Source of the DNA: a virus
IMG/VR virus record: IMGVR_UViG_3300010350_000237
Location: 1,052 to 65,051 of that record
DNA length: 64,000 nt
Strand: one strand, 5' to 3'
The stretch's first letter is position 1. Each line of letters begins with the position of its first letter. Shown piece by piece: positions 2,470 through 64,000 of this stretch. Under the pieces are notes generated by a model. That model was given only the letters and a program-made list of their open reading frames with translations. It ran no database searches and had not been told where the DNA came from. A program made the translations under genes and the position numbers.

Positions 2470-2494
2470 TTATTCACCTTTTTAAAACGTACTT

Positions 2495-3728: not shown

Positions 3729-3760
3729 CGACGTTATAAAAAGATCGGCGAAATACGCGT

Positions 3761-3829: not shown

Positions 3830-3837
3830 CTTAAATT

Positions 3838-33783: not shown

Positions 33784-33784
33784 A

Positions 33785-43072: not shown

Positions 43073-44784
43073 TAACTTTAACAGAACAGCCCGACGGAAT
43101 GGTCGATCTTTTGGACGATCAAAAACCGCCGGTTCCTTTGTCCGATTGTGTTCGGTATTGTCTCCAGCCTGACGTCGCCGACGCGATCAGTACGCCCGGG
43201 GCGTTCGCGACCGTCGTCTTTGTCTTCCCGACGACGTGTACGGTACCCAGCGACGGGACGACGTTCAAAATTTGGGGTTACGATTTTACGATCGATTCGT
43301 CTTCGGACTTTTCGTCGTCGTCGTTTAAGGTCGATACGATCGGCCTTCTTACGATTTTGAACTTTTCGAATATGATTTACGCGAATATTTTCTTTAATCG
43401 GGCGGTAACGATCAGTTTCCAGGTCGTCGGTTCTGATTACGAAATAACGCTTACCTGGAACGAATGTCGCGAACAGCCCAGGTTCAGTTCGGAAGATATG
43501 GTTCTGGACGTCTTTACGACGATCGGAGGTTCCGCCACGCCTACGAACGGAACGTCGCCGGTTTACGTTGACGGGTTTCGAATTATAACCAGGGGTTACG
43601 TTCTGAAAGACGCGACGTATTCGGGTTCGGCCCTGGGGCCTTTCGTCGGTCTGGAATCCGAAAAACAATGCACGACAGTCGGCGAAACCTGCGTCGTTAT
43701 GAACGACGATTATTCGGAAGAACTTTATACACCCCTTCCCGATCTTACTTCGACGGCGTTTATCGATACGATTACCCTGGGCCGTTCAATGATGAAGCTT
43801 TTCGTTTTAGAATATGGCTGGACGTATCGCGAAAATTGTATCGCGAAAAGCGGTACGATCGTTCGTTCTAAAATGGGCCTTATATTAAACGCCGCTTTCC
43901 CTATCGAAGACCCGTTCCAGATACGTCGTTACTGGTACGGCCACCCCGACGGATTCCCGAACGGACTTACTTACGCCGAATTTTTAACGTACCAGCCGAA
44001 GGAAACGAAAGTTCGAACGGATTCCTTCGTCTGGCTCTGGATGCTGAACAGCTGGCAGGAAGATTTTGGGCAATATTCGTTAAAGGCCCGATTCGTTACT
44101 TATAACCTGGACGGAACGGTCGGGACGATTTATAACTTTATCGTTAACGACGGGGTATCGGACGCACATTCCTGGCACCAGCCTGTTAATTTCAACGTAT
44201 CGCCGTCCTTCCTGGTCGACCAGTTCGCGGTCGATCTTACGACGATTTTAAAGTACGAAGTTCAGGTCGTCGGGGTTAATACCGCAGACCCAAACGACAT
44301 TTACTTTAATGCGACCGAATATATCGGGTTCGTTCCTGTTATGGCTTGCGAATCACATACCGACCTTTACTTCCTTAATTCTCCCGGCGGTATCGATACC
44401 TTCGACGTTCAGATCGATAAGATCGAAGTCGTCCAGGACGGGAACGAAGTACAAATCGGAATACCTTGCGGAACTGATCGCTCCGATCGGGCGAAGTACG
44501 GCGGTCGAACCCTGGTAAGTCTTCGGAGTTATACAAAATACACGCTTTCGGCGGAACTCCAGCGAACAGACGCGAACCGTCGCTGGCTTACCGATCTTCG
44601 GAAGTCTCCGCAAAGGTGGATAAAGGTTACCGACGACGACGGTCAGCCACTGGCAAAAAAAATCATCATTTCACCCGGCGCGATAAAGGTTAACGAAGTC
44701 GGCGTCGGAATTAAAATCGAATTGGAAGCTTATTCGCAGGACATACCGGCGCAATCCAGTTCCGAAAAACGTTTACAGGCATGA
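43069..44784 (+). CDS. Distal tail/baseplate protein
   Basis: Follows the tape measure; MITLTEQP, LYFLNSPGGIDTF. Confidence 0.6.
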   Translation: MITLTEQPDGMVDLLDDQKPPVPLSDCVRYCLQPDVADAISTPGAFATVVFVFPTTCTVPSDGTTFKIWGYDFTIDSSSDFSSSSFKVDTIGLLTILNFSNMIYANIFFNRAVTISFQVVGSDYEITLTWNECREQPRFSSEDMVLDVFTTIGGSATPTNGTSPVYVDGFRIITRGYVLKDATYSGSALGPFVGLESEKQCTTVGETCVVMNDDYSEELYTPLPDLTSTAFIDTITLGRSMMKLFVLEYGWTYRENCIAKSGTIVRSKMGLILNAAFPIEDPFQIRRYWYGHPDGFPNGLTYAEFLTYQPKETKVRTDSFVWLWMLNSWQEDFGQYSLKARFVTYNLDGTVGTIYNFIVNDGVSDAHSWHQPVNFNVSPSFLVDQFAVDLTTILKYEVQVVGVNTADPNDIYFNATEYIGFVPVMACESHTDLYFLNSPGGIDTFDVQIDKIEVVQDGNEVQIGIPCGTDRSDRAKYGGRTLVSLRSYTKYTLSAELQRTDANRRWLTDLRKSPQRWIKVTDDDGQPLAKKIIISPGAIKVNEVGVGIKIELEAYSQDIPAQSSSEKRLQA

Positions 44785-45134
44785 AAAAACAAATCCTTTA
44801 CCTGGTATTTTTCGCCGGGCTTTTAACGCTTGGCTGTCACAAACAACCGAAGCCGTCTTTCCTGGGAAAATGGGAAACGGTAACGACTGTCGGTTTTAAA
44901 TGGGAATACGATATTTCGTCGAATACGAACTGTCGAAAACTTCCTGAATATTTCGGGGAAACCCTTTTCTGTTATCCTTACGATATCGGCGACGATAATA
45001 CGTTCGTCGTACACACTCCAGAACCGGAAGTCTGGGAATTTAATTTCGTTGACGACTGCGGCGACGTGGCCGACGTATGGGTAACACTTCCCGACGGGGA
45101 AAAGCAACAGTTTATTTTAAAGCGTATTGAATGA
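44781..45134 (+). CDS. Lipoprotein (lipocalin-like)
   Basis: MKKQILYLVFFAGLLTLG|C; FLGKWE. Confidence 0.75.
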   Translation: MKKQILYLVFFAGLLTLGCHKQPKPSFLGKWETVTTVGFKWEYDISSNTNCRKLPEYFGETLFCYPYDIGDDNTFVVHTPEPEVWEFNFVDDCGDVADVWVTLPDGEKQQFILKRIE

Positions 45135-47821
45135 ACGCCGATAATATCGAAATTCAGGTTACCAATTTACCGCCGGAGGTTTCGGCGCGTTTTGAAGGAA
45201 AGACGACGGTCGATTTAGACCTTCCTGTCGACTTTTCGCTTCGTCTATCGAAGGACGTTTTATCGCTGTCTGTCCTGGGAAAGATAAAGGTCGAAGGAAT
45301 CCTGGGCTTCGGTCTTCCTTATACCGATACGAATAACATTGTATTCGGAGCGTACAAAACGCCGCTTACCCTGGATAACAGAACGGTATTTTATACCGTC
45401 CAGGTAAAAGTCGACGGTCACGGCCTCCAGTTCGATCGCCTCCAGATAAAAGGTCGGGACGACAAAAAATCCGAATGGGAAGTCGAACTTTCCCGTCGGC
45501 CCGATCACTGGGTCGAACTGTCGTCCCAGTTAAAGACGAACGAACTGGACTTCGGGTCGTTCACAATGTCAAAGACGGCGATAATCGGAAACTGGACGAC
45601 GCCCGCTTACGAAGGCGATTACACCGACCCGAATACCGGACAAAGGCCCTATTACTGGCCCCTGGTCGATTATGGGGGCTGGGTCGATCTGTCGGAGGCG
45701 CCCCAGGGTTCGATCGGACGATTTAAGGCGGTCGCGGTCGAAGACTTCCGACCCTGGCTTTCTTGGATTTATATTCTTCGCGCTGGGTTCTGTCGAATCG
45801 GTTGGAACTTGGAATCGGTACTGTTCGACCTGGACGACATTCGTCGTCTTTGGGTTTACGACCTTCGACCGGATTACTTTATCGCTTCAAATCGCGGCGG
45901 TCGGGTTATCGGTCGAAATTATACGCAATACGAATGGCTGCCGAATATCGGGGGGGCTGACTTCCTTCGGTTTACCGATCTGGCGTTCGGTCTTACCGGT
46001 ACACATATTACCGTCGCCGGTAAAACTTATTGCGGACTTCGTAACGTAACAGGGGTCGCGCTCAAATATAAATTTTACCTTAAAGGCGACTTTTTTAACG
46101 ATCGTCCGAATCCCTTCCCGGCCTGGTTTTCGATTATGGAACTGGAGCAAAACGGGGCAGATTACGATTTTACGGGCGAACAGATATCGGAAGACGCCTT
46201 TCTGGTACAATTCGACGCAAACGAAACCCAGTCGGTAACATACGAAGAAACGGTTACCCTTAAACCTGGACAGATCGGCGTCGTTCATATCAATGTTTTA
46301 CCGACGTCAGGATTCAAGGTCGAACCGGGTCTTTACTTTACAGTTACTCCGGCGAACGATTCCCTTTTTACCGACGATATCGTAACCGTTTCGGAATGTG
46401 TTTCCGACGATATGTCGATTCTGGACTGGTTAAAAGCGTTTTTGCACCTGGTAAACGGTCGGTTAAATACTGACTGGGAAACGAAGACAGTTACGATTTA
46501 CCCGAATAAAACGTCGAAACTTTGGTCTGGAACAGCCCCTGGATTCCTTCTTCGGGAATCGCCGATCGTTGACCTGGAAGACCTGGTCGTTCCTGGTTCG
46601 ATTCAGACGAAACCAATACGTCCGAACCTTAAAAGATATACGCGGTTTCAGTTCAAAGACACGACGGACGCTTATATCAAAAGCCTTAATTTACTGGAGC
46701 CAGCGCACAGTCGGACGCTATTAAACAGCGTCGACTTTCCGAACGGTATCGAAGAAATAAAGAACCCGTTTATCGAACCGACGCTGGAGGGGGTACCGTC
46801 AGACATAGCAAGCGGGGCCGGAAGTCGAAACCCCTTACCATATTTGCCCCGTCTTTGGGATAATACCGAAGGGAATCGTTCTTTCAACCTGGGAAAAAGG
46901 GTTCTTTACGCATACGACCCAGTTCAACAGATAAACCCGGCGCCGATTACGTCCGCCAGTGTTTATTCGACATTCTTTTTTGATTATCCGCCGAACCCTG
47001 GAGGGGACGGACTTGTCGAAGAATTTGGTTACGCTTCAAACCTTCCGACCCGCGAATTAACTCCGACGCCGACGGTTACGCCGTACTTCGTTTTCGGGTC
47101 GACAGGCGTCGATCTTTTTACCGTCTTTTATCTTGGTTATACGCAGGACAACCGTAACGGGAATACCGTCGATCTTCTTCTTCGTATGAAAACGAAGGAT
47201 TACTTTTCTTACGACTTCCGAAATCTTTACCGGTTCAGACTTCGCGGAATTCCGATCGTCGCGCCGATGCAAGCGGTAAGGGACTTCGCGGCCGGGAATT
47301 CTGATCTTCCGACGCCGGTTACGTTCTTCGTCGAACCGTCGGAAACGGACTGTTGCGATCTTCCTTGCGGTTGTCAGTTTAAAACGTGTGAATATTATCA
47401 GGATTTAGGGTATAACGTTCGACAGTCGACTTTAAATTCCTGGTTAATATCTTCCTTCGTCGTCGATGGTATCGAACAACTTACCGCGCCGGTCGCGTTG
47501 GGACTGATTAAGATAATCGATATCGGGGGGAAACCATACGTTACGAACCTGGTCGACGTGCTGAACGGTATCGGCGCGCCGTATTTTTCTTTTTCGTATT
47601 CGACCAGGGTTCACCCAGAAAAGGGACTTCGGTACTTTAAAATTAAAAATCTGGCTTGCGTTCCGTTTTCGATTACGATTACCGTCGGAGGTTCGGAAGG
47701 TTATATTTATACCCAGGACAGCCAGCAACAGGCAATTTTCCAGGCCGGGTTCGACGATATGGGTTACGGTTCTTCGTTTACCGGCGTTCCTGAAAATTGT
47801 GTTCCGACAACCGAATATTAA
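45131..47821 (+). CDS. Tail tip/hub protein
   Basis: 896 aa; LDL...F.LP.T..N..VF N-terminus; YWPLVDYG. Confidence 0.65.
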   Translation: MNADNIEIQVTNLPPEVSARFEGKTTVDLDLPVDFSLRLSKDVLSLSVLGKIKVEGILGFGLPYTDTNNIVFGAYKTPLTLDNRTVFYTVQVKVDGHGLQFDRLQIKGRDDKKSEWEVELSRRPDHWVELSSQLKTNELDFGSFTMSKTAIIGNWTTPAYEGDYTDPNTGQRPYYWPLVDYGGWVDLSEAPQGSIGRFKAVAVEDFRPWLSWIYILRAGFCRIGWNLESVLFDLDDIRRLWVYDLRPDYFIASNRGGRVIGRNYTQYEWLPNIGGADFLRFTDLAFGLTGTHITVAGKTYCGLRNVTGVALKYKFYLKGDFFNDRPNPFPAWFSIMELEQNGADYDFTGEQISEDAFLVQFDANETQSVTYEETVTLKPGQIGVVHINVLPTSGFKVEPGLYFTVTPANDSLFTDDIVTVSECVSDDMSILDWLKAFLHLVNGRLNTDWETKTVTIYPNKTSKLWSGTAPGFLLRESPIVDLEDLVVPGSIQTKPIRPNLKRYTRFQFKDTTDAYIKSLNLLEPAHSRTLLNSVDFPNGIEEIKNPFIEPTLEGVPSDIASGAGSRNPLPYLPRLWDNTEGNRSFNLGKRVLYAYDPVQQINPAPITSASVYSTFFFDYPPNPGGDGLVEEFGYASNLPTRELTPTPTVTPYFVFGSTGVDLFTVFYLGYTQDNRNGNTVDLLLRMKTKDYFSYDFRNLYRFRLRGIPIVAPMQAVRDFAAGNSDLPTPVTFFVEPSETDCCDLPCGCQFKTCEYYQDLGYNVRQSTLNSWLISSFVVDGIEQLTAPVALGLIKIIDIGGKPYVTNLVDVLNGIGAPYFSFSYSTRVHPEKGLRYFKIKNLACVPFSITITVGGSEGYIYTQDSQQQAIFQAGFDDMGYGSSFTGVPENCVPTTEY

Positions 47822-52898: not shown

Positions 52899-54344
52899 AT
52901 GTCGGAAGTTATAAATCTGGACTGTTGCGAACCTGACGAAGCAACGAACCCGAAACGGGACTTATTCAAACGTCGGGCGAAGCGGGTCGATCATTTGTTC
53001 CGACTTGAAAATCCGATTCCGTCGGAAGTAAAAGATACCAGGACGTTAAAAAAGATTTTTAAGGATTACAACCTGGTTCCGTATGCTGGCAAAACAGCCA
53101 GTTCCGGGCATAGTCTTTTGACCTGGTACCTTTTACTGGCGAATCTTTCCCCGACGAATTCGGCCGCGATTAAGAAAAAAGTAAAGTACGCGGTCGGAGG
53201 GAAGGCCCGAATCGTTCGGTCTGTCGACCCTGAATTCGAAACGGGGGAAGAACTGGCGGAGGTTACACCGGCGGAGGCGATCGCGTTCGTCGATCAGTTA
53301 AAAACGTTCTTTGAATTTGAAGGGGGAATTTCTTCTTTTCACCGACGTATCGGCTGGCAGTACGAAGCCACTGGTAACGCATTTGTCGAAATGTCGATCG
53401 CTACGGAAGGCGGACAGACCCGAATCTTCCTTCGCGCTCACAAAACGACGAACGTTCTTTATTTCAATACAGAACCAGGAAAGCCGAAGATCGTCGCGAT
53501 ATCGCCGGTCTGGGAAGATAAATACCTGGAAAAGAACCCGCCCAGGGAAGTACCGATTTACCCTTTATTCGTAAACGACGACGGGGTTCTTCGGACAATG
53601 TTTCACTTAAAAAGCGGGTCTTACACCTGGTACGGGCGTCCGCCCAGTACGGGGGCAGATATTTACAAATACCGCGAAATCCAGGACGCGATTTATCTGG
53701 TTAAAGCCGCGGCGTCTGACTTTACCGGACGACTTATCGTCGAACTGGAAGACGACGACCCGGAATTTTCCGCCGCGCTGGAGAATGAAAAGGCGAAGAA
53801 GAACGGGTTCGACGGGTTCGTCGATCAGTTCGAAGAAAATTACACGAACAAAGGCGAAGACCCGCAATCGGTAATGGTCGTTTCCAGACCTTACGGTTCG
53901 CGTCCGATGTTTGTTTTCCAGGTTTCGCCGAATATGAAGCAAGCCTGGTACCAGGTAACGGGCGAAATCAGCGAAGAAAAGATTTTTCGCGCTCACATGG
54001 TAACGCCGCGTTTTATGGGAAAGGAAGTTTCGTCGGGGTTTTCGACCGACGTTTATCTGTCCGATTACCTGTTAAACATGGAACCGGTTATCGACGAACT
54101 GCACGACGAACTTACCAACTTTACGAACAGCATTTTATCGGCCGGCTGGTCATTTATGGGACAGGAAGAAGCGAACGTTTATTCGATCGCTTTTGCCCCG
54201 CCGATATCGTCTTCCCTGGAGGAATACAAAAGCGGAAAGACCCAGTCGACAAATCAGCCCCAGGCCCAGAACCAGAATCCAGACCCGAACCAGGCCCCAG
54301 ACCCGAATAACAATCCAAACGACCCAAAGGAAGAAAACGCGTAA
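52899..54344 (+). CDS. Portal protein
   Basis: SPTNSAAIKKK, TGNAFVE, WYG.P, KIFRAH.V.P..MG. Confidence 0.75.
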   Translation: MSEVINLDCCEPDEATNPKRDLFKRRAKRVDHLFRLENPIPSEVKDTRTLKKIFKDYNLVPYAGKTASSGHSLLTWYLLLANLSPTNSAAIKKKVKYAVGGKARIVRSVDPEFETGEELAEVTPAEAIAFVDQLKTFFEFEGGISSFHRRIGWQYEATGNAFVEMSIATEGGQTRIFLRAHKTTNVLYFNTEPGKPKIVAISPVWEDKYLEKNPPREVPIYPLFVNDDGVLRTMFHLKSGSYTWYGRPPSTGADIYKYREIQDAIYLVKAAASDFTGRLIVELEDDDPEFSAALENEKAKKNGFDGFVDQFEENYTNKGEDPQSVMVVSRPYGSRPMFVFQVSPNMKQAWYQVTGEISEEKIFRAHMVTPRFMGKEVSSGFSTDVYLSDYLLNMEPVIDELHDELTNFTNSILSAGWSFMGQEEANVYSIAFAPPISSSLEEYKSGKTQSTNQPQAQNQNPDPNQAPDPNNNPNDPKEENA

Positions 54345-54346
54345 CG

Positions 54347-54991
54347 ATGGATTTAATAACGCCTTTCGAAGTTCTCAAATATAGCCCGGCGGGTTTCGAT
54401 TACCCGACGTCGTCTTTTTGTGAACTGATACCACAAATCGAACAGGAATTCGCAGACGAATGCCTGGGAACGACCCTTTACGATTACCTGGTTTCGAAAT
54501 TAACGACTTATCCTTCTTCGGTTTCTGAATACGACCCGAACGTTTCGTATTCCCTGGACGACCTGGTTATTCGGAACGGTTGTACGTTTAAATCGACAGC
54601 GAATTCCAATACGACCGACCCGATCGTTTCGGGGTCTGACTGGACAGCGTTCGAACGGTTCACCGATGCCGGGTCGAATCAACTCTGGACAGGATATCTT
54701 CGGTTTTTACTGGCTTTGAAGGTGTACGACGCTTCTTTAATCTTTACGACTTATCGATCTGGAGCCGGGGGGCTTACCGTAAACCAGGGCGACGGTTCTG
54801 GTTTCAGGTCGGCGAACAAAGCGGAAATTATCCAAACGTCGGCGAAGCTGGACGGACAGATCAAAAGAACGACCGATAATATGTTACGATGGCTAACAAA
54901 GAACGCCGAAACTCTGGGACTTCCGTTCCCGGTATGTCTGGAGGGTTGCGAAACACCGTCCCGACATTCGCGACGCTGGGGCTTTCGTTAA
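54347..54991 (+). CDS. Head-tail adaptor (putative)
   Basis: Follows portal; LG..LYDYL. Confidence 0.55.
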   Translation: MDLITPFEVLKYSPAGFDYPTSSFCELIPQIEQEFADECLGTTLYDYLVSKLTTYPSSVSEYDPNVSYSLDDLVIRNGCTFKSTANSNTTDPIVSGSDWTAFERFTDAGSNQLWTGYLRFLLALKVYDASLIFTTYRSGAGGLTVNQGDGSGFRSANKAEIIQTSAKLDGQIKRTTDNMLRWLTKNAETLGLPFPVCLEGCETPSRHSRRWGFR

Positions 54992-55001
54992 TCCTGAACG
55001 T

Positions 55002-55301
55002 ATGAACTTTATCGATAGGGCCGCCGCCTTACTTGCTTTAAAAACCCTGGTTACGACCCTGGTCGAACCTGAAATCGCGGAACAACGTCTGGCAACTTGC
55101 GAAGCGTGTAAATTATTCGACCACGAATCGCGACGCTGTAAAGTTTGTAAATGTTACGTCGACGCGAAAACGAAAGCCCTGGAGAACTGGAACCCTTTAA
55201 AATTAAGATACGAAATAACTCACTGCCCGAAGGGGTACTGGGGCGACCAGGAAGTCGCGAATTATTACGCACAAATCGACGGCGAACAGCCGATTAACTA
55301 A
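55002..55301 (+). CDS. Cys-rich small protein (DUF6171-like)
   Basis: RLATCEAC...CKVCKC...CPKGYW. Confidence 0.7.
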   Translation: MNFIDRAAALLALKTLVTTLVEPEIAEQRLATCEACKLFDHESRRCKVCKCYVDAKTKALENWNPLKLRYEITHCPKGYWGDQEVANYYAQIDGEQPIN

Positions 55302-55321
55302 ATTTTAAAATCAGTTTTACC

Positions 55322-56044
55322 ATGTTACGAAAAAATTCTGTCCCAGATCAGAACCCGGACAACCTGCTCAAAACGACACGGGGGGAACTGGGTTGCTGCG
55401 GCGACGACGCCGTCGAATGTCAAAACACGACGTCTTATACCCAGGCGAACAGCGTTTCGGCGCTTAATCTTTTGGAAAAGGGCGTCGCGACTGTCGTTCC
55501 TTTGTCGATCGCTGGAGCCGAAACCGCCGAAAATGTAAAGGCCGCGATCGAAGCCGCGCTTTACGAAATCGGGTATTACGAAGACGACCAGGGCGACTTC
55601 CCAGGGGTAACCGTTACCGATGCTGGCGCGACGCTGGACGTCGTACTTACGGGCGATATCGTTCCCGTTTCCCTGGTAACGTCTGGCGGTACCGTAACCT
55701 TTACGGCCGCTTGCGACAAAACAGGGAATTGCGACTTCGCTGTCCTGGACTTCACCGCTGGCGCTGGTTCTGAACTCCACATAAACGGCGCGACCGAATC
55801 GCTGGGAACGATTACGCCCGGGACGACAACGTCGGGCGACGTTCAAACAGCTGTCGAAGGCGCACTGGATAACCAGGGTATCACATACGACAGCGTTACG
55901 GTTACGACGACGGGTTCGGGCGGTTCCCAGACCTATAACGTAACGATCGCCGGGGCTCCAGCCCAGTCGACGTTTTACCTGGTCGGCGCCAGCCTTGTAA
56001 AATTTTATCTGGAGCGTTCGAATTGCGTCCAGGTATTCGCGTAA
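55322..56044 (+). CDS. Structural-region protein with two similar halves
   Basis: TAENVKAAIEAAL / TSGDVQTAVEGAL. Confidence 0.65.
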   Translation: MLRKNSVPDQNPDNLLKTTRGELGCCGDDAVECQNTTSYTQANSVSALNLLEKGVATVVPLSIAGAETAENVKAAIEAALYEIGYYEDDQGDFPGVTVTDAGATLDVVLTGDIVPVSLVTSGGTVTFTAACDKTGNCDFAVLDFTAGAGSELHINGATESLGTITPGTTTSGDVQTAVEGALDNQGITYDSVTVTTTGSGGSQTYNVTIAGAPAQSTFYLVGASLVKFYLERSNCVQVFA

Positions 56045-56075: not shown

Positions 56076-57200
56076 ATGTTTCGACTTTTGTCTTTATCGT
56101 GCCTTATTATAATGGGTCTGGCTGGTTCACTTACCGGCCAGACTTTCACGTTCGAATGTGTTTGCGCTCACCTTACCGGCGATACTTGCGACATTTGTCC
56201 GAATAATAATTTACTGGTATCGCGGTCTTTTCATGGACTTTTAATTCGAAGGAACGGAACGCCTTACAAATGGATAGACGAACCTTATACGATTAAAAGG
56301 TACCAGAACGAAAGCGTTCAATTTCTTGAACAGATACCAAACCCCGACCAGGTAACGATCGCTTTATTCCAGACGCCCTTCGCGACGATGGAAGATTTTG
56401 TCGATTCGACGACCTGTTTCTGTTCTTTGGGCGGGTCGATGAACAGCGTCGCCGTCGATACTCCGATTATTGGCGACGGTTCTCCAGGGAACCCGGTAAC
56501 GATCGGACAGTTCGGAGCCGATACGACAATGTTTTTAAACTGGAACGGGTCGCACTGGTACCCGTCGAAAGTTGCGATTACCGACCTTTTAAACGACTTA
56601 CCTTATTACCTGAACGACGAAGACGCGCTGGCGAACGGGCTTACTCCAGGAAAGACGTACTTACTGGCTGCCGGGAATACATTCGCCCTTCCGACCGGAC
56701 TTTATAAAGTCGTTATCGGTTGCGGGTACGACTGCGCGATTACGATTAAAGTTTACGTTTCCGACCAGGTCGCGACCCTTAACGGGGTTCCTGCAGGACG
56801 GGAATACGTTCTGGCCCAGGGGAACGAATACGGTCTTCTTTACGGCTGGGTTAAAGCGATCGGCGCGGACTTGTCGCCGACTGATACCCTGGAATGCAAC
56901 CTGGTACTTCCTTCTTATACTGACGACCCGACGGCGATTATCGGAGGGCTGTCGACCGGCGAATTTTATACGGTAACGGTTTCGAATCCTTACGGCGCGC
57001 CCGAAGGCATTCAAAGAATGGTTTCGACGACGTCGACCAGTTCCGGCGACCCGCCGACCTGTTGCGAAGATTCGACTTTACCTTATTACCAGAACGACGC
57101 GGCCGCGATTACTGGAGGGCTGTCGTCTGGGTACTTTTATTATCTGTCGTCCGACAATACGCTGGGCTGGCCATACGGGACGAAAAAAGTTATTCCATAA
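56076..57200 (+). CDS. Signal-peptide, Cys-rich protein with four LPxYxxDxxA..GGL..G repeats
   Basis: MFRLLSLSCLIIMGLAGSLTG|QT. Confidence 0.8.
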   Translation: MFRLLSLSCLIIMGLAGSLTGQTFTFECVCAHLTGDTCDICPNNNLLVSRSFHGLLIRRNGTPYKWIDEPYTIKRYQNESVQFLEQIPNPDQVTIALFQTPFATMEDFVDSTTCFCSLGGSMNSVAVDTPIIGDGSPGNPVTIGQFGADTTMFLNWNGSHWYPSKVAITDLLNDLPYYLNDEDALANGLTPGKTYLLAAGNTFALPTGLYKVVIGCGYDCAITIKVYVSDQVATLNGVPAGREYVLAQGNEYGLLYGWVKAIGADLSPTDTLECNLVLPSYTDDPTAIIGGLSTGEFYTVTVSNPYGAPEGIQRMVSTTSTSSGDPPTCCEDSTLPYYQNDAAAITGGLSSGYFYYLSSDNTLGWPYGTKKVIP

Positions 57201-60200
57201 ATGAAACGAATTTTCCAGATCGCGTTTTTCCTGTCAATTTCGCCGACGTTTTTATTTTCCCAGGCGATCGTTAAAGGTTCGGGCATTGTTTACACGAACG
57301 GAGCCCCGACGCACAGTATCGACATAAATACGGACGCCGAAGTCGCTATCGATACCGCGTCCGGTTACTGGTACGAAAGAAGTCGCGACGGGGCTGGCTG
57401 GATTTTGGCCGGTTTCCGTATTCAGTTACTGGCGGGGTCTTCGGCACCTTCCGGGGCTCCAGCCGACAAAGAATCCGAAGTCGTCGTTAACGACGTCGAT
57501 TCCCTTTATCGATGGCGTTCCGGGGCCTGGCGCCACTTAAACAAAGTCGTTACTTATACGGCTGGGACTGGTATAAATATTACGTCCGGTAATGTTATCG
57601 AAAATACCGGCGATCTGTCGGATTCGAACGAAGGAATCCTGGGCGTCGGCGCTGGAGGGGCCACGTCTTCGACCCTTACCAGTAATACGTCCGGCGCTGC
57701 CGGGGTAACAATAAACGCGGCCGGTATTCTGTCGATCAGCGAAACGACGTCGACGAATGGCGGGTCGATTACGATTACCGGTACCGAAGTCGACGGTTCA
57801 GTAACGAACGAAGGAACCCTGGGCGTCGGCGCTGGAGGGGCCACGTCTTCGACGCTTCTTTCCAATACGTCAGGCGCGACAGGGGTAACGGTAAACGTCG
57901 CCGGTATTTTATCGATCAGCGAATCGACGTCGGCGAATGGCGGTTCGATTACGATTACCGGTACCGAAGTCGACGGGTCGGTAACGAATGAACTCCAGAC
58001 GATCGCCAATACGTCAGACGCGACCAGTCATACGGTCACGCTTTCAAACTCTGGCGGTTCTGTCCAACTGGTCGAAGGTGCGAACGTAACCTTAACGACG
58101 ACGGGTACGGGTTCCGATGGAATCGTTACGATCGCGGCTTCGTCTGGAGGCGGGGCCGATCTTTCGTATTCTGGAGCATCGTCGCCCGTAACCCTGGCAA
58201 GTTCGACAGGAACCGACGTAACTTTTACGGAAGGGGGAATCGTTACGATAACGGCTTCGTCGTCGAACCTGACGATCAGCGCGACCGAAGTCGACGGTTC
58301 GGTAACGAACGAAGCCTGGACGATAGACGCGGACGACGCCGATACCGAAGTTATCAGTAACCAGACGGTAAAATTTGAAGGGGCCGGTATAACGACGACC
58401 GATTATAACCCAGCGACCGACGTTCTGTTAATCACTTCGACCGAAGTCGACGGTTCGGTAACGAATGAACTCCAGACGATCGCCAATACGTCAGACGCGA
58501 CCAGTCATACGGTCACGCTTTCGAATTCTGGCGGGTCGGTACAACTGGTCGAAGGGTCAAACATAACCCTAACGACGACCGGTACCGGGTCGGACGGAAT
58601 CGTTACGATCGCGTCGACTGGAGGGGGGACGACCGATCTTTCTTATACTGGGTCGACTTCGCCGGTAACCCTGGCAAGTTCGACAGGTAACGACGTAACG
58701 ATAACGGAAGGGGGAATCGTTACGATAACGGCGACTTCTTCGAACCTGACGATCAGCGCGACCGAAGTCGATGGTTCAGTTACGAATGAACTCCAGACGA
58801 TCGCCAATACTTCGGACGCGACCAGTCATACGGTCACGCTTTCAAACTCCGGCGGTTCTGTTCAACTGGTCGAAGGTGCGAACGTAACCTTAACGACGAC
58901 GGGTACGGGTTCCGACGGAATCGTTACGATCGCGGCGACGTCTGGAGGCGGAACCGATCTTTCGTATTCTGGAGCATCGTCGCCGGTTACCCTGGTAAGT
59001 TCTTCGGGTAACGACGTAACCTTTACCGAAAGCGGAATCGTTACAATAACGGCGACTTCTTCGAACCTGACGATCAGCGCGACCGAAGTCGATGGTTCAA
59101 TAACGAACGAAGGAATCCTGGGCGTCGGCGCTGGAGGGGCGACGTCTTCGACAATCATTACGAACACGTCGACCGGGAACGACGTAACTGTAAACGTCGG
59201 CGGTATTTTATCGATCAGCGAATCGACGTCGACGAACGGCGGGTCGATAACGATTACCGGTACGGAAGTCGACGGTTCGGTAACGAATGAACTCCAAACG
59301 ATCGCCAATACGTCAGACGCGACCAGTCACACGGTAACCCTGTCTTCTTCGGGCGGGTCGATTCAATTCGTCGAAGGGGCAAACGTTACGCTTACGACGA
59401 CGGGTACGGGTTCCGACGGAATCGTTACGATCGCGGCGACGTCTGGAGGCGGAACCGATCTTTCGTATTCTGGAGCATCGTCGCCGGTTACCCTGGTAAG
59501 TTCTTCGGGTAACGACGTAACCTTTACCGAAAGCGGAATCGTTACGATAACAGCGACGTCGTCGAACCTGACGATCAGCGCGACCGAAGTCGACGGTTCG
59601 GTAACGAATGAACTCCAGACCCTGGCGAATACTTCGGACGCGACCAGTCATACGGTCACGCTTTCGAATTCGGGCGGGTCGGTACAACTGGTCGAAGGGT
59701 CAAACGTAACCCTAACGACGACCGGTACGGGTTCCGATGGGATTGTTACGATCGCGTCGACCGAAGTCGACGGTTCGATTACAAACGAAGGAATCCTGGG
59801 CGTCGGCGCTGGAGGGGCAACGTCGTCGACCCTGACGACAAACACGTCGACAGGTAACGACGTAACGGTAAACGTCGCCGGTATTTTATCGATCAGCGAA
59901 TCGACGTCTTCGAACGGCGGGTCGATTACGATTACCGGAACCGAAGTCGACGGGTCGGTAACAAACGAACTCCAGACCCTGGCGAACACTTCAAACGCGA
60001 CCAGTCATACGGTCACGCTTTCAAACTCCGGCGGTTCTGTTCAACTGGTCGAAGGCGCGAATGTAACCCTAACGACGACCGGTACCGGGTCGGACGGAAT
60101 CGTTACGATCGCCGCGACGTCTGGAGGCGGGGCCGATCTTTCCTTTACTGGGTCGACTTCGCCGGTTACTCTGAACAGTTCGACCGGAACCGACGTAACC

Positions 60201-61895
60201 TTTACCGAAAGCGGAATCGTTACGATAACAGCGACGTCGTCGAACGTTACGATCAGCGCGACGGAAGTCGACGGTTCGGTAACGAACGAACTCCAGACGA
60301 TCGCCAATACTTCGGACGCTACCAGTCACACGGTAACCCTGTCTTCTTCCGGCGGTTCCGTCCAATTGGTCGAAGGGACAAACGTAACCCTAACGACGAC
60401 GGGTACCGGCTCCGATGGAATCGTTACGATCGCGTCGACCGAAGTCGATGGTTCGATTACAAACGAAGGAATCCTGGGCGTCGGCGCTGGAGGCGCGACG
60501 TCGTCGACGATTATTACGAACACGTCGACCGGCAACGCGGTAACAATAAACGCGGCCGGTATTCTGTCGATCAGCGAATCGACGTCTTCGAATGGCGGGT
60601 CGATTACGATTACCGGAACCGAAGTCGACGGTTCGGTAACGAATGAACTCCAGACGATCGCCAATACGTCAAACGCGACCAGTCATACGGTCACGCTTTC
60701 AAACTCCGGCGGTTCTGTCCAACTGGTCGAAGGGTCAAACATAACCCTAACGACGACCGGTACCGGCTCCGACGGAATCGTTACGATCGCGTCGACTGGA
60801 GGTTCCGGCGATATGATACTTTCGGCCGTTCAGACTATTACCGGCGCGAAGACCTTCGGCGCTGCCGGGAATGTCGGTAAGTTGATTATTGCCGGGAATA
60901 CAAGCGGCACGACAATTTTAAACGCGGCTGCCGTCGCTGGTTCTGGAACCGTAACACTTCCGACGACTGGAACGCTGTCGACGCTGGCCGGAACCGAAAC
61001 CCTTACAAATAAGACGATATCGTTCAGTAATAACACGCTTACGAACGTAATGTCGACAACAACAGCGCAAAGCGTTACGGCTGGGATAAAAAAGACCTTC
61101 CAGGCGAACGGAACGACAGCTGGTTTTCGACTTGCCGGTGTTTCGTCCGACCCTTCTTCCCTGACGGCCGGCGATATCTGGTATCGGACAGATTCCGAAA
61201 AACTAACATACCAGGGCGCGGCGTCGACGCGAAGCCTGGTCGCCGAAAACTTAACCCAGACCCTAACGAACAAGACAATAAGCGGCGCGTCGAATACGAT
61301 TACGAACGTCAGTTTATCGACAGGCGTTACCGGTAACCTTCCAGTTACGAATCTTAATTCTGGTACTGGAGCAACGGCGACGACATTCTGGACAGGGAAC
61401 GGAACCTGGTCGGCCGAAGTCGACGGTTCAGTTACGAACGAAGGTTCGCTTTCGGTTTCTGCCGGAGGCTCGAACGACAGCCAGATCGCCAGTAATACTT
61501 CGGGAAGTACGAACGTAACGATATCGGGCGGAACGGGAATCCAGGTAACCGAATCGGGTTCGACGATAACAGTCAGCGCGACAGCGACAACGTTTAACGC
61601 CCAGACCGGGACGTCTTATACCCTGGTTCTGACGGATGCCGGGAAAATTGTAACAATGTCGAACGCGTCGGCGAATACGCTTACGATTCCGCCGAATAGT
61701 TCGGTCGCGTTCCCGACTGGGACGATAATAAATATCGTACAATACGGAGCCGGACAAACGACGATCGCCCCAGGTTCGGGCGTAACCTTAAACAGTGCGG
61801 ATTCGAAGACAAAACTTCGCGTTCAAAATTCCCCGTCTTCTATCGTTAAAACTGATACTAACGTATGGCTTTTATTTGGCGACATTTCAAATTAA
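57201..61895 (+). CDS. 1564-aa signal-peptide fibre/adhesin-like repeat protein
   Basis: MKRIFQIAFFLSISPTFLFS|QA; 19 repeat modules; C-terminal NAQTGTSYTLVLTDAGK domain. Confidence 0.85.
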   Translation: MKRIFQIAFFLSISPTFLFSQAIVKGSGIVYTNGAPTHSIDINTDAEVAIDTASGYWYERSRDGAGWILAGFRIQLLAGSSAPSGAPADKESEVVVNDVDSLYRWRSGAWRHLNKVVTYTAGTGINITSGNVIENTGDLSDSNEGILGVGAGGATSSTLTSNTSGAAGVTINAAGILSISETTSTNGGSITITGTEVDGSVTNEGTLGVGAGGATSSTLLSNTSGATGVTVNVAGILSISESTSANGGSITITGTEVDGSVTNELQTIANTSDATSHTVTLSNSGGSVQLVEGANVTLTTTGTGSDGIVTIAASSGGGADLSYSGASSPVTLASSTGTDVTFTEGGIVTITASSSNLTISATEVDGSVTNEAWTIDADDADTEVISNQTVKFEGAGITTTDYNPATDVLLITSTEVDGSVTNELQTIANTSDATSHTVTLSNSGGSVQLVEGSNITLTTTGTGSDGIVTIASTGGGTTDLSYTGSTSPVTLASSTGNDVTITEGGIVTITATSSNLTISATEVDGSVTNELQTIANTSDATSHTVTLSNSGGSVQLVEGANVTLTTTGTGSDGIVTIAATSGGGTDLSYSGASSPVTLVSSSGNDVTFTESGIVTITATSSNLTISATEVDGSITNEGILGVGAGGATSSTIITNTSTGNDVTVNVGGILSISESTSTNGGSITITGTEVDGSVTNELQTIANTSDATSHTVTLSSSGGSIQFVEGANVTLTTTGTGSDGIVTIAATSGGGTDLSYSGASSPVTLVSSSGNDVTFTESGIVTITATSSNLTISATEVDGSVTNELQTLANTSDATSHTVTLSNSGGSVQLVEGSNVTLTTTGTGSDGIVTIASTEVDGSITNEGILGVGAGGATSSTLTTNTSTGNDVTVNVAGILSISESTSSNGGSITITGTEVDGSVTNELQTLANTSNATSHTVTLSNSGGSVQLVEGANVTLTTTGTGSDGIVTIAATSGGGADLSFTGSTSPVTLNSSTGTDVTFTESGIVTITATSSNVTISATEVDGSVTNELQTIANTSDATSHTVTLSSSGGSVQLVEGTNVTLTTTGTGSDGIVTIASTEVDGSITNEGILGVGAGGATSSTIITNTSTGNAVTINAAGILSISESTSSNGGSITITGTEVDGSVTNELQTIANTSNATSHTVTLSNSGGSVQLVEGSNITLTTTGTGSDGIVTIASTGGSGDMILSAVQTITGAKTFGAAGNVGKLIIAGNTSGTTILNAAAVAGSGTVTLPTTGTLSTLAGTETLTNKTISFSNNTLTNVMSTTTAQSVTAGIKKTFQANGTTAGFRLAGVSSDPSSLTAGDIWYRTDSEKLTYQGAASTRSLVAENLTQTLTNKTISGASNTITNVSLSTGVTGNLPVTNLNSGTGATATTFWTGNGTWSAEVDGSVTNEGSLSVSAGGSNDSQIASNTSGSTNVTISGGTGIQVTESGSTITVSATATTFNAQTGTSYTLVLTDAGKIVTMSNASANTLTIPPNSSVAFPTGTIINIVQYGAGQTTIAPGSGVTLNSADSKTKLRVQNSPSSIVKTDTNVWLLFGDISN
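57627..60800 (+). repeat. 19 in-frame modules, order C C A B D A B A B C A B A C A B A C A
   Basis: Read from the translation; shared TEVDGS(V/I)TNE hinge. Confidence 0.9.
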
Positions 61896-62827
61896 CAACG
61901 GCGCTTTTATTCGTCGTCGGGTCTTTGTTTGGGCAGTTTACCGGTAACGGCGTTATCGGAGTTATCGCGTCGTCGATTCAGGTCGGAGGGTCAACGTTTA
62001 CGGGATTACTGGACACGGTACCGGACGCCGGATTCTTTTATTCGTTACGTCGTGTAAATAGTGCTTATACCGGCGATCTTTTGACCGTTAGACGTGCAAG
62101 CGACGACGCCGAACAGTCGATCGGTTACGTCGCCGATACCTTAGATCGGGCGTCAATAGAAAGTTTTTGTTCTGGAACGACCTGTTACGTTCCACTTTGG
62201 AACGATCAGTCTGGAAACGGACGGGACGCGCTGGGCTGGAACGAATCGACGACAAACGATAACCTTCCGATTATAGTAAACGCCGGAACGACGGTAACGC
62301 TTAACGGACGAATCGCGATTTATTGTCCTCATCCCAGGGCCTTTTTTTGGACGGACGCGTCGACAGATATCAGCGACTTAATTACTGCCGTCGGAGGCGG
62401 AGGCGGAACGAAGGCCGGTACGGCTCACGTCGTCGGGTATGTCGGGTCGACGCCGACCGACCCTTATTTATTTGCGCTGAACGACCCAGGGGGCGACGAA
62501 TATTGGTGGCTTTATTCTGACGGAAACGCCAGAATCGAATTTAATAGTACGGCTGCAAGTATGGGCGCCGACATAACCCGCGACGCGCAAACAATTTGGT
62601 GCGGACGGGTAACAGGAACGACGTTCGAAGTCTTCGAAAACGGTTCTTCGATCGGTTCTTCGACGAACGGTTCGTCCCAGACTTCGACGACGACCGAAGT
62701 CGAATTTAAGTTCGGAGGCGGGTCGTTTTCCAGTCGAACGATCGACGGTTATTACCAGGAAATCGGTTCCTGGAAAACGTCGGAAAATGTTACGACCCTT
62801 TATAATTCCGCGAATGCTTACTGGTAA
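61865..62827 (+). CDS. Signal-peptide LamG/ConA-like (arabinofuranosidase-catalytic-domain-like) protein
   Basis: ...VVGSLFG|QF; YSLRRVNSAYTG....VRRASD; WNDQSGNGRDA. Confidence 0.7.
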   Translation: MAFIWRHFKLTTALLFVVGSLFGQFTGNGVIGVIASSIQVGGSTFTGLLDTVPDAGFFYSLRRVNSAYTGDLLTVRRASDDAEQSIGYVADTLDRASIESFCSGTTCYVPLWNDQSGNGRDALGWNESTTNDNLPIIVNAGTTVTLNGRIAIYCPHPRAFFWTDASTDISDLITAVGGGGGTKAGTAHVVGYVGSTPTDPYLFALNDPGGDEYWWLYSDGNARIEFNSTAASMGADITRDAQTIWCGRVTGTTFEVFENGSSIGSSTNGSSQTSTTTEVEFKFGGGSFSSRTIDGYYQEIGSWKTSENVTTLYNSANAYW

Positions 62828-62839
62828 AAACTTTGTTTT

Positions 62840-63118
62840 ATGATAGTTCACAAACGTAAAAGCACAAACAAATTATTTGTTTTATGGTATGTCCAGAACG
62901 AAAAAGGCGTACCAGGGGAACCGACGATCTGGTTCTGGCCTTTGAAGACTTCCCGTCTGGGAATCTTTAATTCGCGACTGACGATCGACGATAAAGCCGA
63001 CCCGGTATCGTTCCCGAAAAGTAAAGTCGACGGTCTGTTCGACGAAATCGATATAAAACTTCCTTCCCTTCCGACGATACCAGGTATCGAACTTCCGAAG
63101 AAAACAGAAATCGAATAA
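62840..63118 (+). CDS. Hypothetical protein
   Basis: Co-oriented ORF. Confidence 0.65.
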   Translation: MIVHKRKSTNKLFVLWYVQNEKGVPGEPTIWFWPLKTSRLGIFNSRLTIDDKADPVSFPKSKVDGLFDEIDIKLPSLPTIPGIELPKKTEIE

Positions 63119-63125
63119 TTATCGA

Positions 63126-64000
63126 ATGAAGAAGATTTTTTTCGCCGTCGTTTTATCCCTTATCGCGTCGACCGGATTTTCCCAGGTCGCGAAGGGTACC
63201 GGTATTTTTTATTTTAACGGCCCGCCGTCGATACCGGTAAACGAATGTTACGACGGCGAAGTCGGAATCGACACTTCTTCGGGGTATTGGTACGAATATT
63301 CCAGGGACTTGGCGTCCTGGATAAAAGCCGGGTTTCGGGTTCAGTTATACGATACTTGCGCAAAACCGGTTTACGTTCCAGTCGACAAACAGTCCGAAGT
63401 CGTCCTTAATTCCTGCGATTCGCTTTATCGCTGGCGTTCCGGGGCCTGGTACCATTTAAACCCAGGTTCGGCGGTTACTGGCTGGACGATCGCGGCGGAC
63501 GACGTCGATACGGAACTGATAACGAACCAGACGGTCACGTTCTCCGGCGCTGGGATTACGACGACGGATTATAACCCAGCGACCGACGTCCTGTTAATAA
63601 CTTCGACGGAAGTCGACGGTTCGGTAACGAACGAACTCCAGACGCTGGCGAATACTTCGGACGCGACCAGTCATACGGTCACGCTTTCAAACTCTGGCGG
63701 GTCGGTACAACTGGTCGAAGGGGCAAACGTTACGCTTACGACGACGGGTACGGGCTCCGATGGGATTGTTACGATCGCGGCTTCGTCTGGAGGCGGAACC
63801 GATCTTTCGTACTCTGGAGCATCGTCGCCCGTAACCCTGAACAGCTCGACCGGTACCGACGTAACCTTTACGGAAGGCGGAATCGTAACGCTTACCGCGA
63901 CGTCGTCGAACCTAACGATCAGCGCGACGGAAGTCGACGGTTCGGTAACGAACGAACTCCAGACGCTGGCGAATACTTCGGACGCGACCAGTCATACGGT
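63126..64000 (+). CDS. N-terminal part of the second signal-peptide fibre/adhesin-like protein (3'-truncated; absent from the ORF track)
   Basis: MKKIFFAVVLSLIASTGFS|QVAKGTG; N-domain paralogous to 57201; modules D,A,B,A. Confidence 0.85.
   Translation, partial: MKKIFFAVVLSLIASTGFSQVAKGTGIFYFNGPPSIPVNECYDGEVGIDTSSGYWYEYSRDLASWIKAGFRVQLYDTCAKPVYVPVDKQSEVVLNSCDSLYRWRSGAWYHLNPGSAVTGWTIAADDVDTELITNQTVTFSGAGITTTDYNPATDVLLITSTEVDGSVTNELQTLANTSDATSHTVTLSNSGGSVQLVEGANVTLTTTGTGSDGIVTIAASSGGGTDLSYSGASSPVTLNSSTGTDVTFTEGGIVTLTATSSNLTISATEVDGSVTNELQTLANTSDATSHT

Follow-up and report, generated by a model that had tools for sequence, protein, structure and literature searches.

The window is a 64,000-nt stretch of DNA from an uncultured tailed phage of 65 kb found in activated sludge, whose genes include those for a terminase, a portal and a prohead protease besides a holin/endolysin pair. 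A block of genes with predicted signal peptides (SP) occupies positions 56076–64000 and resumes at 2–2469, after portal/adaptor-like genes and before the lysis genes (Table 1; ORFs are named by their first nucleotide). The genes of the block overlap or are tightly packed, and terminator-like sites are no commoner than in shuffled sequence. This arrangement is compatible with transcription of the portal gene, the block and the holin/endolysin genes as one late unit. The tail module (39543–47821) lies upstream of both the portal/adaptor-like genes and the block. The initial annotation spoke of a fibre position, which is roughly right: the block does precede the lysis cassette, but it follows portal/adaptor-like genes and not the tail module. 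Gene order is conserved in relatives L001 and L004–L008, where the three SP-less genes that follow the portal gene are always found upstream of the SP block. The more distant L009 retains the SP block and lysis-type genes and has different upstream genes. The last 199 nt of the contig show a ~95% match to contig positions 10–208. ORF 63126 and the 5'-open ORF 2–1897, listed separately in the first reading, are two ends of one gene, split inside its repeats by the contig ends.

Table 1. Features of the signal-peptide block and related genes; leaders, cleavage sites (/) and export are predicted from sequence.
Feature	Position (nt)	Strand	Leader	Cleavage site	Remarks
Giant fibre 2, C-terminal part	2–1897	+			Repeats and a distal domain unlike that of fibre 1
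Small exported protein, 190 aa	1897–2469	+	aa 1–18	...QGFA/Q	Coiled-coil segment
Holin candidate	2495–2974	+			Multi-pass membrane protein
Endolysin candidate (GH19/lysozyme-like)	3045–3623	+	SP-less		Pfam Glyco_hydro_19, 4e-5, slightly below curated cut-off
Separate small exported protein, 185 aa	31396–31953	+	aa 1–19	...QVQA/Q	Between DUF5681 (terS-like) and ASCH genes
Tail-fibre-like/tail-tip-like protein, 896 aa	45131–47821	+	SP-less		In the separate tail module
Portal protein	52899–54344	+	SP-less		Language-model features: 77/100 nearest clusters Phage_portal, score 0.95
Three conserved genes (214, 99 and 240 aa)	54347–56044	+	SP-less		Weak DUF6712 and DUF6171 matches
Exported Cys-rich protein, 374 aa	56076–57200	+	aa 1–21 (nt 56076–56138)	...SLTG/Q	Mature N-terminus QTFTFEC
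Giant fibre 1, 1564 aa	57201–61895	+	aa 1–20 (nt 57201–57260)	...FLFS/Q	Conserved N-domain, aa 21–~115
Exported LamG/ConA-like protein, 320 aa	61865–62827	+	aa 1–23 (nt 61865–61933)	...SLFG/Q	31-nt overlap with the end of fibre 1
92-aa ORF within the block	62840–63118	+	SP-less		No family match found
Giant fibre 2, N-terminal part	63126–64000	+	aa 1–19 (nt 63126–63182)	...TGFS/Q	Three-Cys N-domain, repeats; exits the window

A signal followed by Gln had been claimed for six ORFs (56076, 57201, 61865, 63126, 1897 and 31396). All six are on the plus strand, and their coordinates and translations were checked and found correct. Each leader shows the n-h-c order of a charged segment, a hydrophobic segment and a small-x-small motif; residue −1 is G, S or A, and residue +1 is Gln. 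When 77 non-overlapping plus-strand ORFs were scanned for hydrophobicity, five of the six leader ORFs were prominent; ORF 1897 was outside this set and its leader was taken from the translation directly. The scan also picked several membrane proteins, the TerL ORF (with its first ATG taken as the start), and ORFs 44781 (LTLG/C) and 38072 (FSL/C), the only lipoprotein-like ones. None of the six leader ORFs has the Cys at +1 expected of a lipobox. The next in-frame ATG, GTG or TTG lies at codon 51 to 127, within conserved mature sequence, and this excludes a true start past the hydrophobic segment. The mature sequences are unrelated and all start with Q, so the Gln would reflect a rule rather than a family motif. 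Such a rule is known in Bacteroidota, where the leader of Sec/SPI substrates is tripartite, residues −1 and −3 are small and residue +1 is Gln (PMC5837995; PMC10653852), and where the Gln is cyclised to pyroglutamate, which stabilises extracytoplasmic proteins (Bochtler et al. 2018, PMC5837995; Szczesniak et al. 2023, PMC10653852). The leaders of the block share all three features. Gln at six of six sites is consistent with the Bacteroidota mean of 71% and unlike the comparison phyla tested, whose Q-values are low, mostly <20% (PMC5837995). Unlike cellular Q-rule substrates, the present proteins are of the fibre type and come from late genes of a lytic tailed phage, and their Gln frequency is near 100% rather than ~71%.

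Homologues were surveyed for conserved signals, a check that the initial annotation had proposed. The N-domain common to both giant fibres defines a family of 385 cluster representatives and always stands at the protein N-terminus, in every case preceded by a signal peptide. The small-x-small/Q site is present in 143 of 150 representatives (the remainder are mostly N-terminally truncated), with A (76), S (33), G (33) or C (1) at −1. Q21, the +1 Gln, is invariant in an alignment of 38 diverse members (A1), and alignment A3 has Q in the +1 column in 24/27. Mean column identity in the N-domain family is 0.40 for the leader and 0.59 for the first mature columns; in the family of ORF 56076 (73 members, 41–96% identity) it is 0.37 and 0.73. 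The hydrophobic core is always present, with a maximum 9-aa Kyte-Doolittle mean of 3.0–3.2 across families. Judged from these alignments, the leaders of both families are kept as an architecture while their sequence varies. Cysteines give a second line of evidence. At N-domain positions 80 and 99, Cys occurs at both in 72 cases, at neither in 74 and at one in a single case (Fisher p = 6e-42, uncorrected for phylogeny), and the 56076 family has 11 invariant Cys. The co-varying pair and the invariant Cys point to disulfides and so to folding in an oxidising compartment, although disulfides could in principle form after lysis. The proposal that these proteins are exported thus gains strong comparative support from a leader conserved as a feature, an invariant +1 Gln, a Cys pair and the lack of an alternative start, and we regard export as highly probable.

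The middle of fibre 1 consists of modular beta-rich repeats and is followed by a C-terminal tip domain (aa ~1462–1564). The tip is ~50% identical to the C-termini of minor tail proteins, all SP-less, from Gordonia, Variovorax and Marinobacter phages and from PhiJL001 (gp87), and it matches phrog_21978 at 4e-18. Fibre 2 spans the contig junction and has at least ~1245 aa in total; its distal domain had no match among GenBank phages. Members of the N-domain family carry SASA, GDSL and K1-lyase_C tailspike-type domains. The model of the N-domain itself (pLDDT 87.5) gave weak matches to tailspike N-termini and collagen trimerisation domains (best BFVD E = 4.6e-4 at TM 0.3; VIA Z ≤3.2). The N-domain is found in phages with unrelated capsid and tail modules. 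This spread seems odd for a virion-docking domain; an anchor in the host envelope or a nucleus for trimerisation would be compatible with it too. One crAss-like contig encodes a 3766-aa fibre with SP and N-domain together with an SP-plus-LamG protein, both inside its virion module.

The LamG/ConA-like protein matches Pfam ArabFuran-catal (1.2e-9). Its close homologues have SP plus Q, while distant ones are signal-less and begin at the residue where the mature protein would start. These distant homologues match phrog_10356, 'virion structural protein', with E-values down to 3e-53. By the tip and LamG-like domain matches, the bodies read as true phage-fibre modules, in agreement with the fibre- or adhesin-like appearance first described. 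In the Cys-rich 56076 protein a ~40-aa motif (LPxYxNDxxAIxxGLxxGDxY...NTxGxPxG) occurs three to four times; the AF2 model of this protein has a pLDDT of 76, and a fold search with it returned no match. The ATG of ORF 1897 overlaps the stop codon of fibre 2, and a homologue with SP plus Q occupies the equivalent position in L001.

No integrase gene was detected, as the initial annotation had noted, and a search of the genome_contigs collection (185,579 species genomes) found neither a prophage copy nor a host genome match. From the integrase-free genome and the absence of prophage copies in this collection, the lineage is judged to be lytic. The nearest TerL proteins belong to Bacteroides/Phocaeicola phages (30%). 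These TerL relatives, the Q-rule and the crAss-like kin indicate a Bacteroidota host, or possibly one of the Ignavibacteriota; Ignavibacterium likewise has a high Q-value (PMC5837995).

Several known systems resemble the block in part. The coliphage proteins T5 Llp, lambda Lom and Bor, and T4 Spackle have signal peptides, and their genes lie within or close to tail or lysis regions. Unlike the fibre-like block, the coliphage exported proteins are small lipoproteins or outer-membrane proteins that act on the cell, mostly early or in lysogeny. The filamentous-phage proteins pIII and pVIII are virion proteins with Sec signals that are assembled outside the cytoplasm, but filamentous particles are extruded without lysis, whereas the present phage has the packaging, head and lysis genes named above. 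SP-less proteins with the tip domain (Gordonia phage Tolls gp29, Alphaproteobacteria phage PhiJL001 gp87, phrog_21978) share the ~100 C-terminal residues at ~50% identity and also the position, as the final structural genes ahead of the lysis genes. The Gordonia and PhiJL001 proteins lack both signal peptide and N-domain, and their assembly presumably takes place in the cytoplasm. As for novelty, the phenomenon is partly known: signal-peptide proteins of P. gingivalis prophages have been published as obeying the Q-rule of the host (Matrishin et al. 2023, PMC10367356), the only published statement on phage proteins obeying this rule that we found. Those are five function-unassigned genes of temperate phages with a proposed role in outer-membrane alteration, unlike the giant fibre-type proteins of a lytic phage (PMC10367356). 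A further analogy comes from the cultured Bacteroidota siphophages Cellulophaga phi10:1 (gp091–094; NC_021802) and phi19:1 (gp101–103; NC_021799). These proteins start with SP plus Q, and their GenBank records list them as virion structural proteins from MS/MS. Annotated as structural protein, pectate lyase and tail fibre, they end the tail module just upstream of membrane proteins. They are smaller than the block proteins, and neither the N-domain nor 56076 is detectably related to them in sequence. We found no published discussion of the signal peptides of these Cellulophaga proteins.

In our preferred reading, which we hold to be about evenly balanced in probability, the phage is lytic and tailed, and the block encodes late proteins that are exported through Sec/SPI, mature as fibres in the periplasm and probably join the virions at lysis. 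Virion proteins of tailed phages are normally cytoplasmic, and export-matured fibres would depart from the known manufacture of tailed-phage fibres. Comparison shows that the leaders exist and follow the Gln rule, that Cys residues co-vary, that the homology is of the fibre type and that the position in the operon is late. Each block protein would be synthesised with a classical Sec signal peptide and cut by host signal peptidase I directly before Gln, which would become an N-terminal pyroglutamate by the Bacteroidota Q-rule. The two giant fibres and the Cys-rich, LamG-like and small coiled-coil proteins would fold in the periplasm, possibly with disulfides, and would be held there until the neighbouring holin and endolysin act. 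Opening of the inner membrane by the holin would bring cytoplasmic virions and periplasmic fibres into one compartment, and the fibres would then most probably attach to the particles, as appendages that recognise the host or destroy receptors. We infer the cleavage, the pyroglutamate formation, the periplasmic residence and, above all, the virion attachment. The giant fibre-like late proteins very probably fold outside the cytoplasm, because their leaders look like genuine host secretion signals cut before Gln. Given export, virion attachment is a little better than an even proposition.

The initial annotation, whose observation is confirmed and whose interpretation is partly supported, had left two fates for the exported proteins, as fibres attached at lysis or as a host-surface adhesin or mask. 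The data favour attachment at lysis without deciding. Exported non-virion proteins would act on the envelope of the infected cell or be freed at lysis as fibres or enzymes, which we consider possible but rather doubtful. They might mask or destroy receptors to block superinfection and keep progeny from being lost on debris, or strip the glycans of neighbouring cells or the floc matrix. The genuine-looking export signals suit such roles, as do the relatives with glycan esterase and lyase domains, and an N-domain kept whatever the virion type would be expected if its partner is a host component. Exported phage proteins also have precedents in T5 Llp and lambda Lom/Bor, and in the P. gingivalis prophage proteins that follow the Q-rule (PMC10367356). 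In addition, the tail module has its own SP-less fibre-like protein (45131), and the block proteins may therefore be dispensable for adsorption. The nearest atlas clusters of 45131 are viral, with C1q, SprB, BACON, fn3 and Phage-tail_3, which is a lead only. Against a non-virion role, the proteins showed neither a lipobox nor a T9SS C-terminal domain nor any other signal for sorting to the outer membrane, and they would therefore stay in the periplasm until lysis. NCBIfam and Pfam scans of the proteins gave no match to the T9SS sorting domains (TIGR04183/TIGR04131, PF18962); a genome-wide PF18962 search was also without match, but its controls were silent as well. Proteins of 1,250–3,800 aa with tips homologous to virion fibres would be an expensive receptor mask. 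Late expression is expected from the virion/lysis region, the lineage appears lytic, and the analogous Cellulophaga proteins are present in virion preparations, although co-purification could account for that MS/MS signal. The missing sorting signal, the late expression, the lytic lineage and the Cellulophaga MS/MS data are the reasons for which we favour the virion fate over a host-surface role.

It is unlikely that the small members of the block, chiefly 1897–2469, are spanin-like outer-membrane disruptors that belong to the lysis machinery and stand outside the fibre system. ORF 1897 does lie directly upstream of holin and endolysin and has a coiled-coil segment, and in relatives the membrane proteins at this place are interspersed with small lipoprotein-like ORFs. 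However, this phage has no lipoprotein ORF within 1800–3900, the 1897 leader has a cleavage site and Gln where an i-spanin has an uncleaved anchor, and the giant fibres would be left unexplained. Uncleaved hydrophobic N-termini, as inner-membrane anchors during assembly or segments with a role in the particle, would agree with the cytoplasmic habit of tailed-phage virion proteins and with AF2 models in which the leader is a helix, but are very unlikely, given that small residues at −3/−1 and an invariant +1 Gln recur over unrelated families, the leader evolves much faster than the mature start, SP-less homologues start precisely at the predicted mature N-terminus, and the Cys pair co-varies.

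Six ORFs in the window begin with a hydrophobic leader followed directly by Gln, an arrangement proposed in the initial annotation that can be read in all six translations. Five of the six are flagged in a hydrophobicity scan of 77 non-overlapping + strand ORFs; 1897 is outside this ORF set and its leader is taken from the translation. The scan also flags the lipoprotein-like ORFs 44781 and 38072, the TerL ORF (in its first-ATG call) and several membrane proteins. The possibility that the true starts lie downstream of the leaders is closed, because the first in-frame start codon past each leader is 51-127 codons in, within conserved mature sequence.

Leader-bearing ORFs and other features with their coordinates (window positions unless a metagenomic locus is named; a slash marks the predicted cut)
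Feature	Coordinates	Strand	Leader (aa)	Site	Remarks
Cys-rich protein	56076		21	SLTG/Q	
Giant fibre 1	57201-61895		20	FLFS/Q	
LamG-like protein	61865		23	SLFG/Q	
Giant fibre 2	63126		19	TGFS/Q	
Small coiled-coil protein	1897		18	QGFA/Q	
Small, separate protein	31396		19	QVQA/Q	
Multi-pass membrane protein	2495				directly before endolysin
GH19-like endolysin	3045				without signal
Large terminase	33647-35311	+			phrog_979, 2.5e-72
Astacin/M12-type zinc metalloprotease	38072-39016	+		FSL/C	Pfam Astacin 7.9e-9; hydrophobic N-terminus
Tail module	39543-47821				
Lipoprotein-type ORF	44781-45134	+		LTLG/C	117 aa
Prohead protease	49180				
Portal	52899-54344	+			language-model features: Phage_portal in 77/100 nearest clusters
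Small signal-less protein	L013:7429-7659				immediately upstream of signal-bearing fibre
Small signal-less protein	L015:9269-9982				immediately upstream of signal-bearing fibre
Small signal-less protein	L017:9637-10011				immediately upstream of signal-bearing fibre
Signal-bearing fibre	L017:10001-23095				3766 aa; span given together with the 595-aa ArabFuran-catal protein

The reality of the leaders was judged by comparison of homologues. The family of the Cys-rich protein 56076 has 73 members with identity as low as 41%. Every full-length member carries a leader of ~21 residues, freely variable in sequence with a constant hydrophobic core, which ends in A, G or S and is followed by Q-T-F-T-F-E-C. 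Conservation in the leader versus the first 40 mature columns is 0.37 versus 0.73 and 0.40 versus 0.59 in two families. With residues 1-125 of fibre 1 (57201) as query, an exhaustive search that uses no profile gives 385 cluster representatives that share the ~95-residue domain behind the leader (N-domain). Among the best 150 of these 385, with protein lengths of 70 to 3839 aa, the match begins in the first ~30 residues in 149, and the sole exception, P0136, is an unrelated repeat protein. A small-x-small/Q site follows a hydrophobic stretch in 143 of the same 150; the remaining seven are mostly N-terminally truncated. The survey of homologues for conserved signals suggested in the annotation is positive for both families. 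The +1 Gln is among just eight invariant columns of a 38-sequence N-domain alignment. Since this Gln precedes unrelated mature sequences, it reflects a rule that the export pathway imposes, as opposed to a motif of one family. The pattern agrees with the Q-rule of Bacteroidota signal-peptidase-I substrates, for which the mean Q-value is 71% in Bacteroidota and mostly under 20% in Chlorobi, Chlamydiae and Spirochaetes, with Ignavibacterium album high as well; the Gln is converted to pyroglutamate by a periplasm-facing glutaminyl cyclase, which stabilises the proteins (PMC5837995, PMC10653852). Judged from these sequence patterns, Sec export and cleavage before Gln are very likely for the leader proteins.

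The bodies behind the leaders resemble phage fibres and adhesins, as the annotation had supposed, and matches at the fibre 1 tip and among relatives of 61865 bear this out. The C-terminal tip of 57201 (~100 residues) matches phrog_21978. It shares ~50% identity with the C-terminal ends of minor tail proteins from many Gordonia phages, and also with proteins from phages of Variovorax and Marinobacter and from the Alphaproteobacteria phage PhiJL001. PhiJL001 gp87 has no signal peptide; its gene is one of the last structural ones, with the endolysin three genes further downstream. The 61865 protein contains a LamG/ConA-like 'ArabFuran-catal' segment. Its near relatives carry a leader and Gln, while many distant relatives have no leader, their N-termini coinciding exactly with the mature N-terminus predicted here. 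These leaderless relatives match phrog_10356 'virion structural protein' with E-values down to 3e-53, as well as annotated virion and minor tail proteins encoded by phages of Gordonia, Arthrobacter and Synechococcus. Modules that lack a signal in other phages are thus joined to a leader here. In the giant fibres they are joined to a leader-plus-N-domain cassette, which among the best 150 of 385 matches is not seen without its leader apart from mostly truncated members. Some of 52 scanned N-domain proteins contain SASA esterase, GDSL esterase or K1-lyase C-terminal domains, typical tailspike catalytic modules. The distal domain of fibre 2 (63126) has no match among GenBank phages. The O-glycosylation sequon D[ST][AILVMT] occurs at 15 sites in the signal-peptide proteins versus ~20 expected, in a shuffle test that is unreliable on repeats; the small proteins are mildly enriched. 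Fibre 1 has two such Bacteroidota sequons versus 10.8 +/- 2.9 in shuffles, with the same unreliability on repeats, and both fall within IDTA and DSLY, the N-domain motifs that are best conserved. This scarcity could be avoidance in the shaft or a repeat artefact.

Two Cys positions of the N-domain vary together. Among 147 N-domain sequences, Cys80 and Cys99 (57201 numbering) are both present in 72, both absent in 74 and single in only one (Fisher p = 6e-42, a statistic that ignores phylogeny). This covariation is the signature expected of a disulfide. The pair is present in fibre 2 and absent from fibre 1. The 56076 family keeps 11 invariant Cys, and the Cys pattern is evidence, at the level of sequence, for folding in an oxidising compartment. 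The N-domain model gives at most weak matches in PDB, BFVD, AFDB clusters and VIA-wide fold searches, and the 56076 model matches nothing in PDB (Foldseek best E = 0.2) or in the ESM atlas (TM by query 0.24 or less). Some relatives (P0066, P0068, P0074 and L008:9653-10789) have the N-domain where the 56076 family has its Cys-rich N-terminal part, with the C-terminal repeats of that family joined to it; the two N-terminal modules look interchangeable. That the N-domain is retained across unrelated virion types is the main puzzle.

All leader genes except 31396 form a block of ~11 kb, which takes up about 17% of the genome. The gene order is portal, three conserved genes without signal peptide (214, 99 and 240 aa), signal-peptide block, holin candidate and endolysin. 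Neighbouring genes overlap or are separated by 0-31 nt, and terminator-like sites are not commoner than in shuffles, which is compatible with co-transcription of the block with late genes. The order is identical in six related metagenomic loci (L001 and L004-L008), with up to seven leader proteins in succession; two of these have additional signal-less fibre-like genes just upstream. L009, a seventh and more distant locus, has the block and lysis-type genes too but differs in its upstream genes. The initial annotation placed the block at a fibre position. This is only roughly right: the block does lie in late genes before lysis, but the tail module, with its signal-less fibre-like protein 45131, sits elsewhere. 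Two ORFs of the tail region have leader-like N-termini of another type. ORF 44781 lies between the large tail-module genes 43069 and 45131, a placement that recalls T5 Llp adjoining the T5 receptor-binding protein, and could encode an exclusion factor or an o-spanin-like protein. The metalloprotease 38072, inside the tail operon, is a candidate further exported protein.

The cassette is also found on other backbones. A small podovirus-like contig encodes it in an 809-aa protein with an esterase domain. In L017, a 70.7-kb crAss-like contig, the giant fibre is followed by a 595-aa signal-bearing ArabFuran-catal (LamG) protein, and both lie between the Crass_capsid and CrAss_Ring_2 genes, which extends signal-bearing fibres to crAss-like phages. 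The small proteins just upstream of the fibres in L013, L015 and L017, three unrelated backbones, each contain the ~40-aa repeat motif of 56076 as a single copy (hhalign probability 90-96%). By this sequence evidence the genes for the motif protein and the fibre form a conserved, co-travelling pair, and the N-domain could bind this protein or a host component.

Similar leaders occur in cultured phages. In the Cellulophaga phages phi10:1 (gp091, gp092, the pectate lyase gp093 and the tail fibre gp094) and phi19:1 (gp101-gp103), leaders end in A or G followed by Q, the genes lie just upstream of membrane proteins, and GenBank annotates the products as structural from MS/MS of virions. They are analogous, rather than homologous, to the proteins described here. 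In the temperate Bacteroides phage BI-TP1 all 19 tail- and lysis-region proteins examined have no signal peptide, so leaders on tail proteins are not a general trait of Bacteroides phages. For P. gingivalis prophages, Q-rule leaders on proteins of unknown function have already been published (PMC10367356). Literature on tail fibres, crAss-like phages and Cellulophaga phage structural proteins yielded no description of signal peptides. As far as we have seen, leaders on tail-fibre-type proteins are a recurrent and seemingly unpublished habit of Bacteroidota phages. The window adds a large signal-coupled N-domain family, its disulfide covariation, its crAss-like occurrence and its linkage to the 56076-type motif protein.

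No lipobox, T9SS C-terminal domain or other outer-membrane sorting signal was found on the six leader proteins, so they should stay periplasmic until lysis. The endolysin carries no signal peptide and depends on the holin to open the inner membrane. This opening would bring virions and periplasmic fibres into one compartment. Given export, we slightly favour maturation of the fibres in the periplasm followed by attachment to virions at lysis. The alternative is that the exported proteins act on the envelope or as free enzymes. A role in lysogenic conversion is argued against: no tyrosine integrase was found in the contig, in line with the annotation, the N-domain and 56076 profiles have no relative in 185,579 bacterial and archaeal species genomes (two genome_contigs scans), and neither these two nor the crAss-type N-domain matches a GenBank phage. 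T9SS cargo is rejected, since NCBIfam and Pfam scans found no C-terminal sorting domain. With periplasmic maturation as the preferred reading, a broader scheme is offered tentatively, at somewhat less than even chance. Many tailed Bacteroidota phages, including crAss-like ones, may build host-recognition fibres beyond the inner membrane, using an N-terminal export cassette (Sec leader, invariant Gln and ~95-aa domain) that sends bodies cytoplasmic elsewhere to the periplasm. There the bodies would gain pyroglutamate and disulfides, the one in the N-domain being optional, and the N-domain itself could serve as a trimerisation nucleus whose N-terminal position would suit N-to-C translocation. 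Joining to finished particles would occur only between holin triggering and outer-membrane rupture.

The textbook view places tailed-phage assembly wholly in the cytoplasm. If the receptor-binding fibres of Bacteroidota phages are Sec-exported and matured in the periplasm, virion completion would need host Sec, signal peptidase I, glutaminyl cyclase and disulfide machinery, and lysis would time it. The fibres would be blocked at the N-terminus and would contain disulfides, with consequences for how stable they are in sludge, sea water and the gut. Fibre and depolymerase genes of such phages, including crAss-like ones, would need leaderless or periplasmic expression, and prediction tools that drop signal-peptide proteins as non-structural would need revision.

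The window makes up 64,000 bases of a single 65,174-base virus contig (96% complete by CheckV) with nearly all genes on the + strand, and the contig is that of a tailed phage. Its closest terminases, from Bacteroides and Phocaeicola phages, are only 30% identical, and the whole-region DNA has a single 56-nt match to GenBank phages. Near-identical DNA is present in activated-sludge metagenomes: most of the stretch recurs in two runs from other studies in addition to the likely source sample, and no RNA run contains it. The late order at 33647-56044 is unusual: terminase, a tail-like module with a 1102-aa coiled-coil protein and an 896-aa fibre-like protein, prohead protease, coiled-coil scaffold-like protein, capsid candidate and, last, portal. 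For most late proteins of this region, sequence searches of Pfam, PHROG and PDB give no match, and 39543, 43069, 45131 and 52899 have none in sequence searches against solved structures. The final 199 nt of the contig are ~95% identical to contig positions 10-208, within fibre repeats, and both open ORFs read the same peptide; 63126 to the end and 2-1897 are therefore one fibre gene broken by assembly inside repeats. Circular permutation or terminal redundancy is probable for this genome, and the assembler may have collapsed repeat units of fibre 2.
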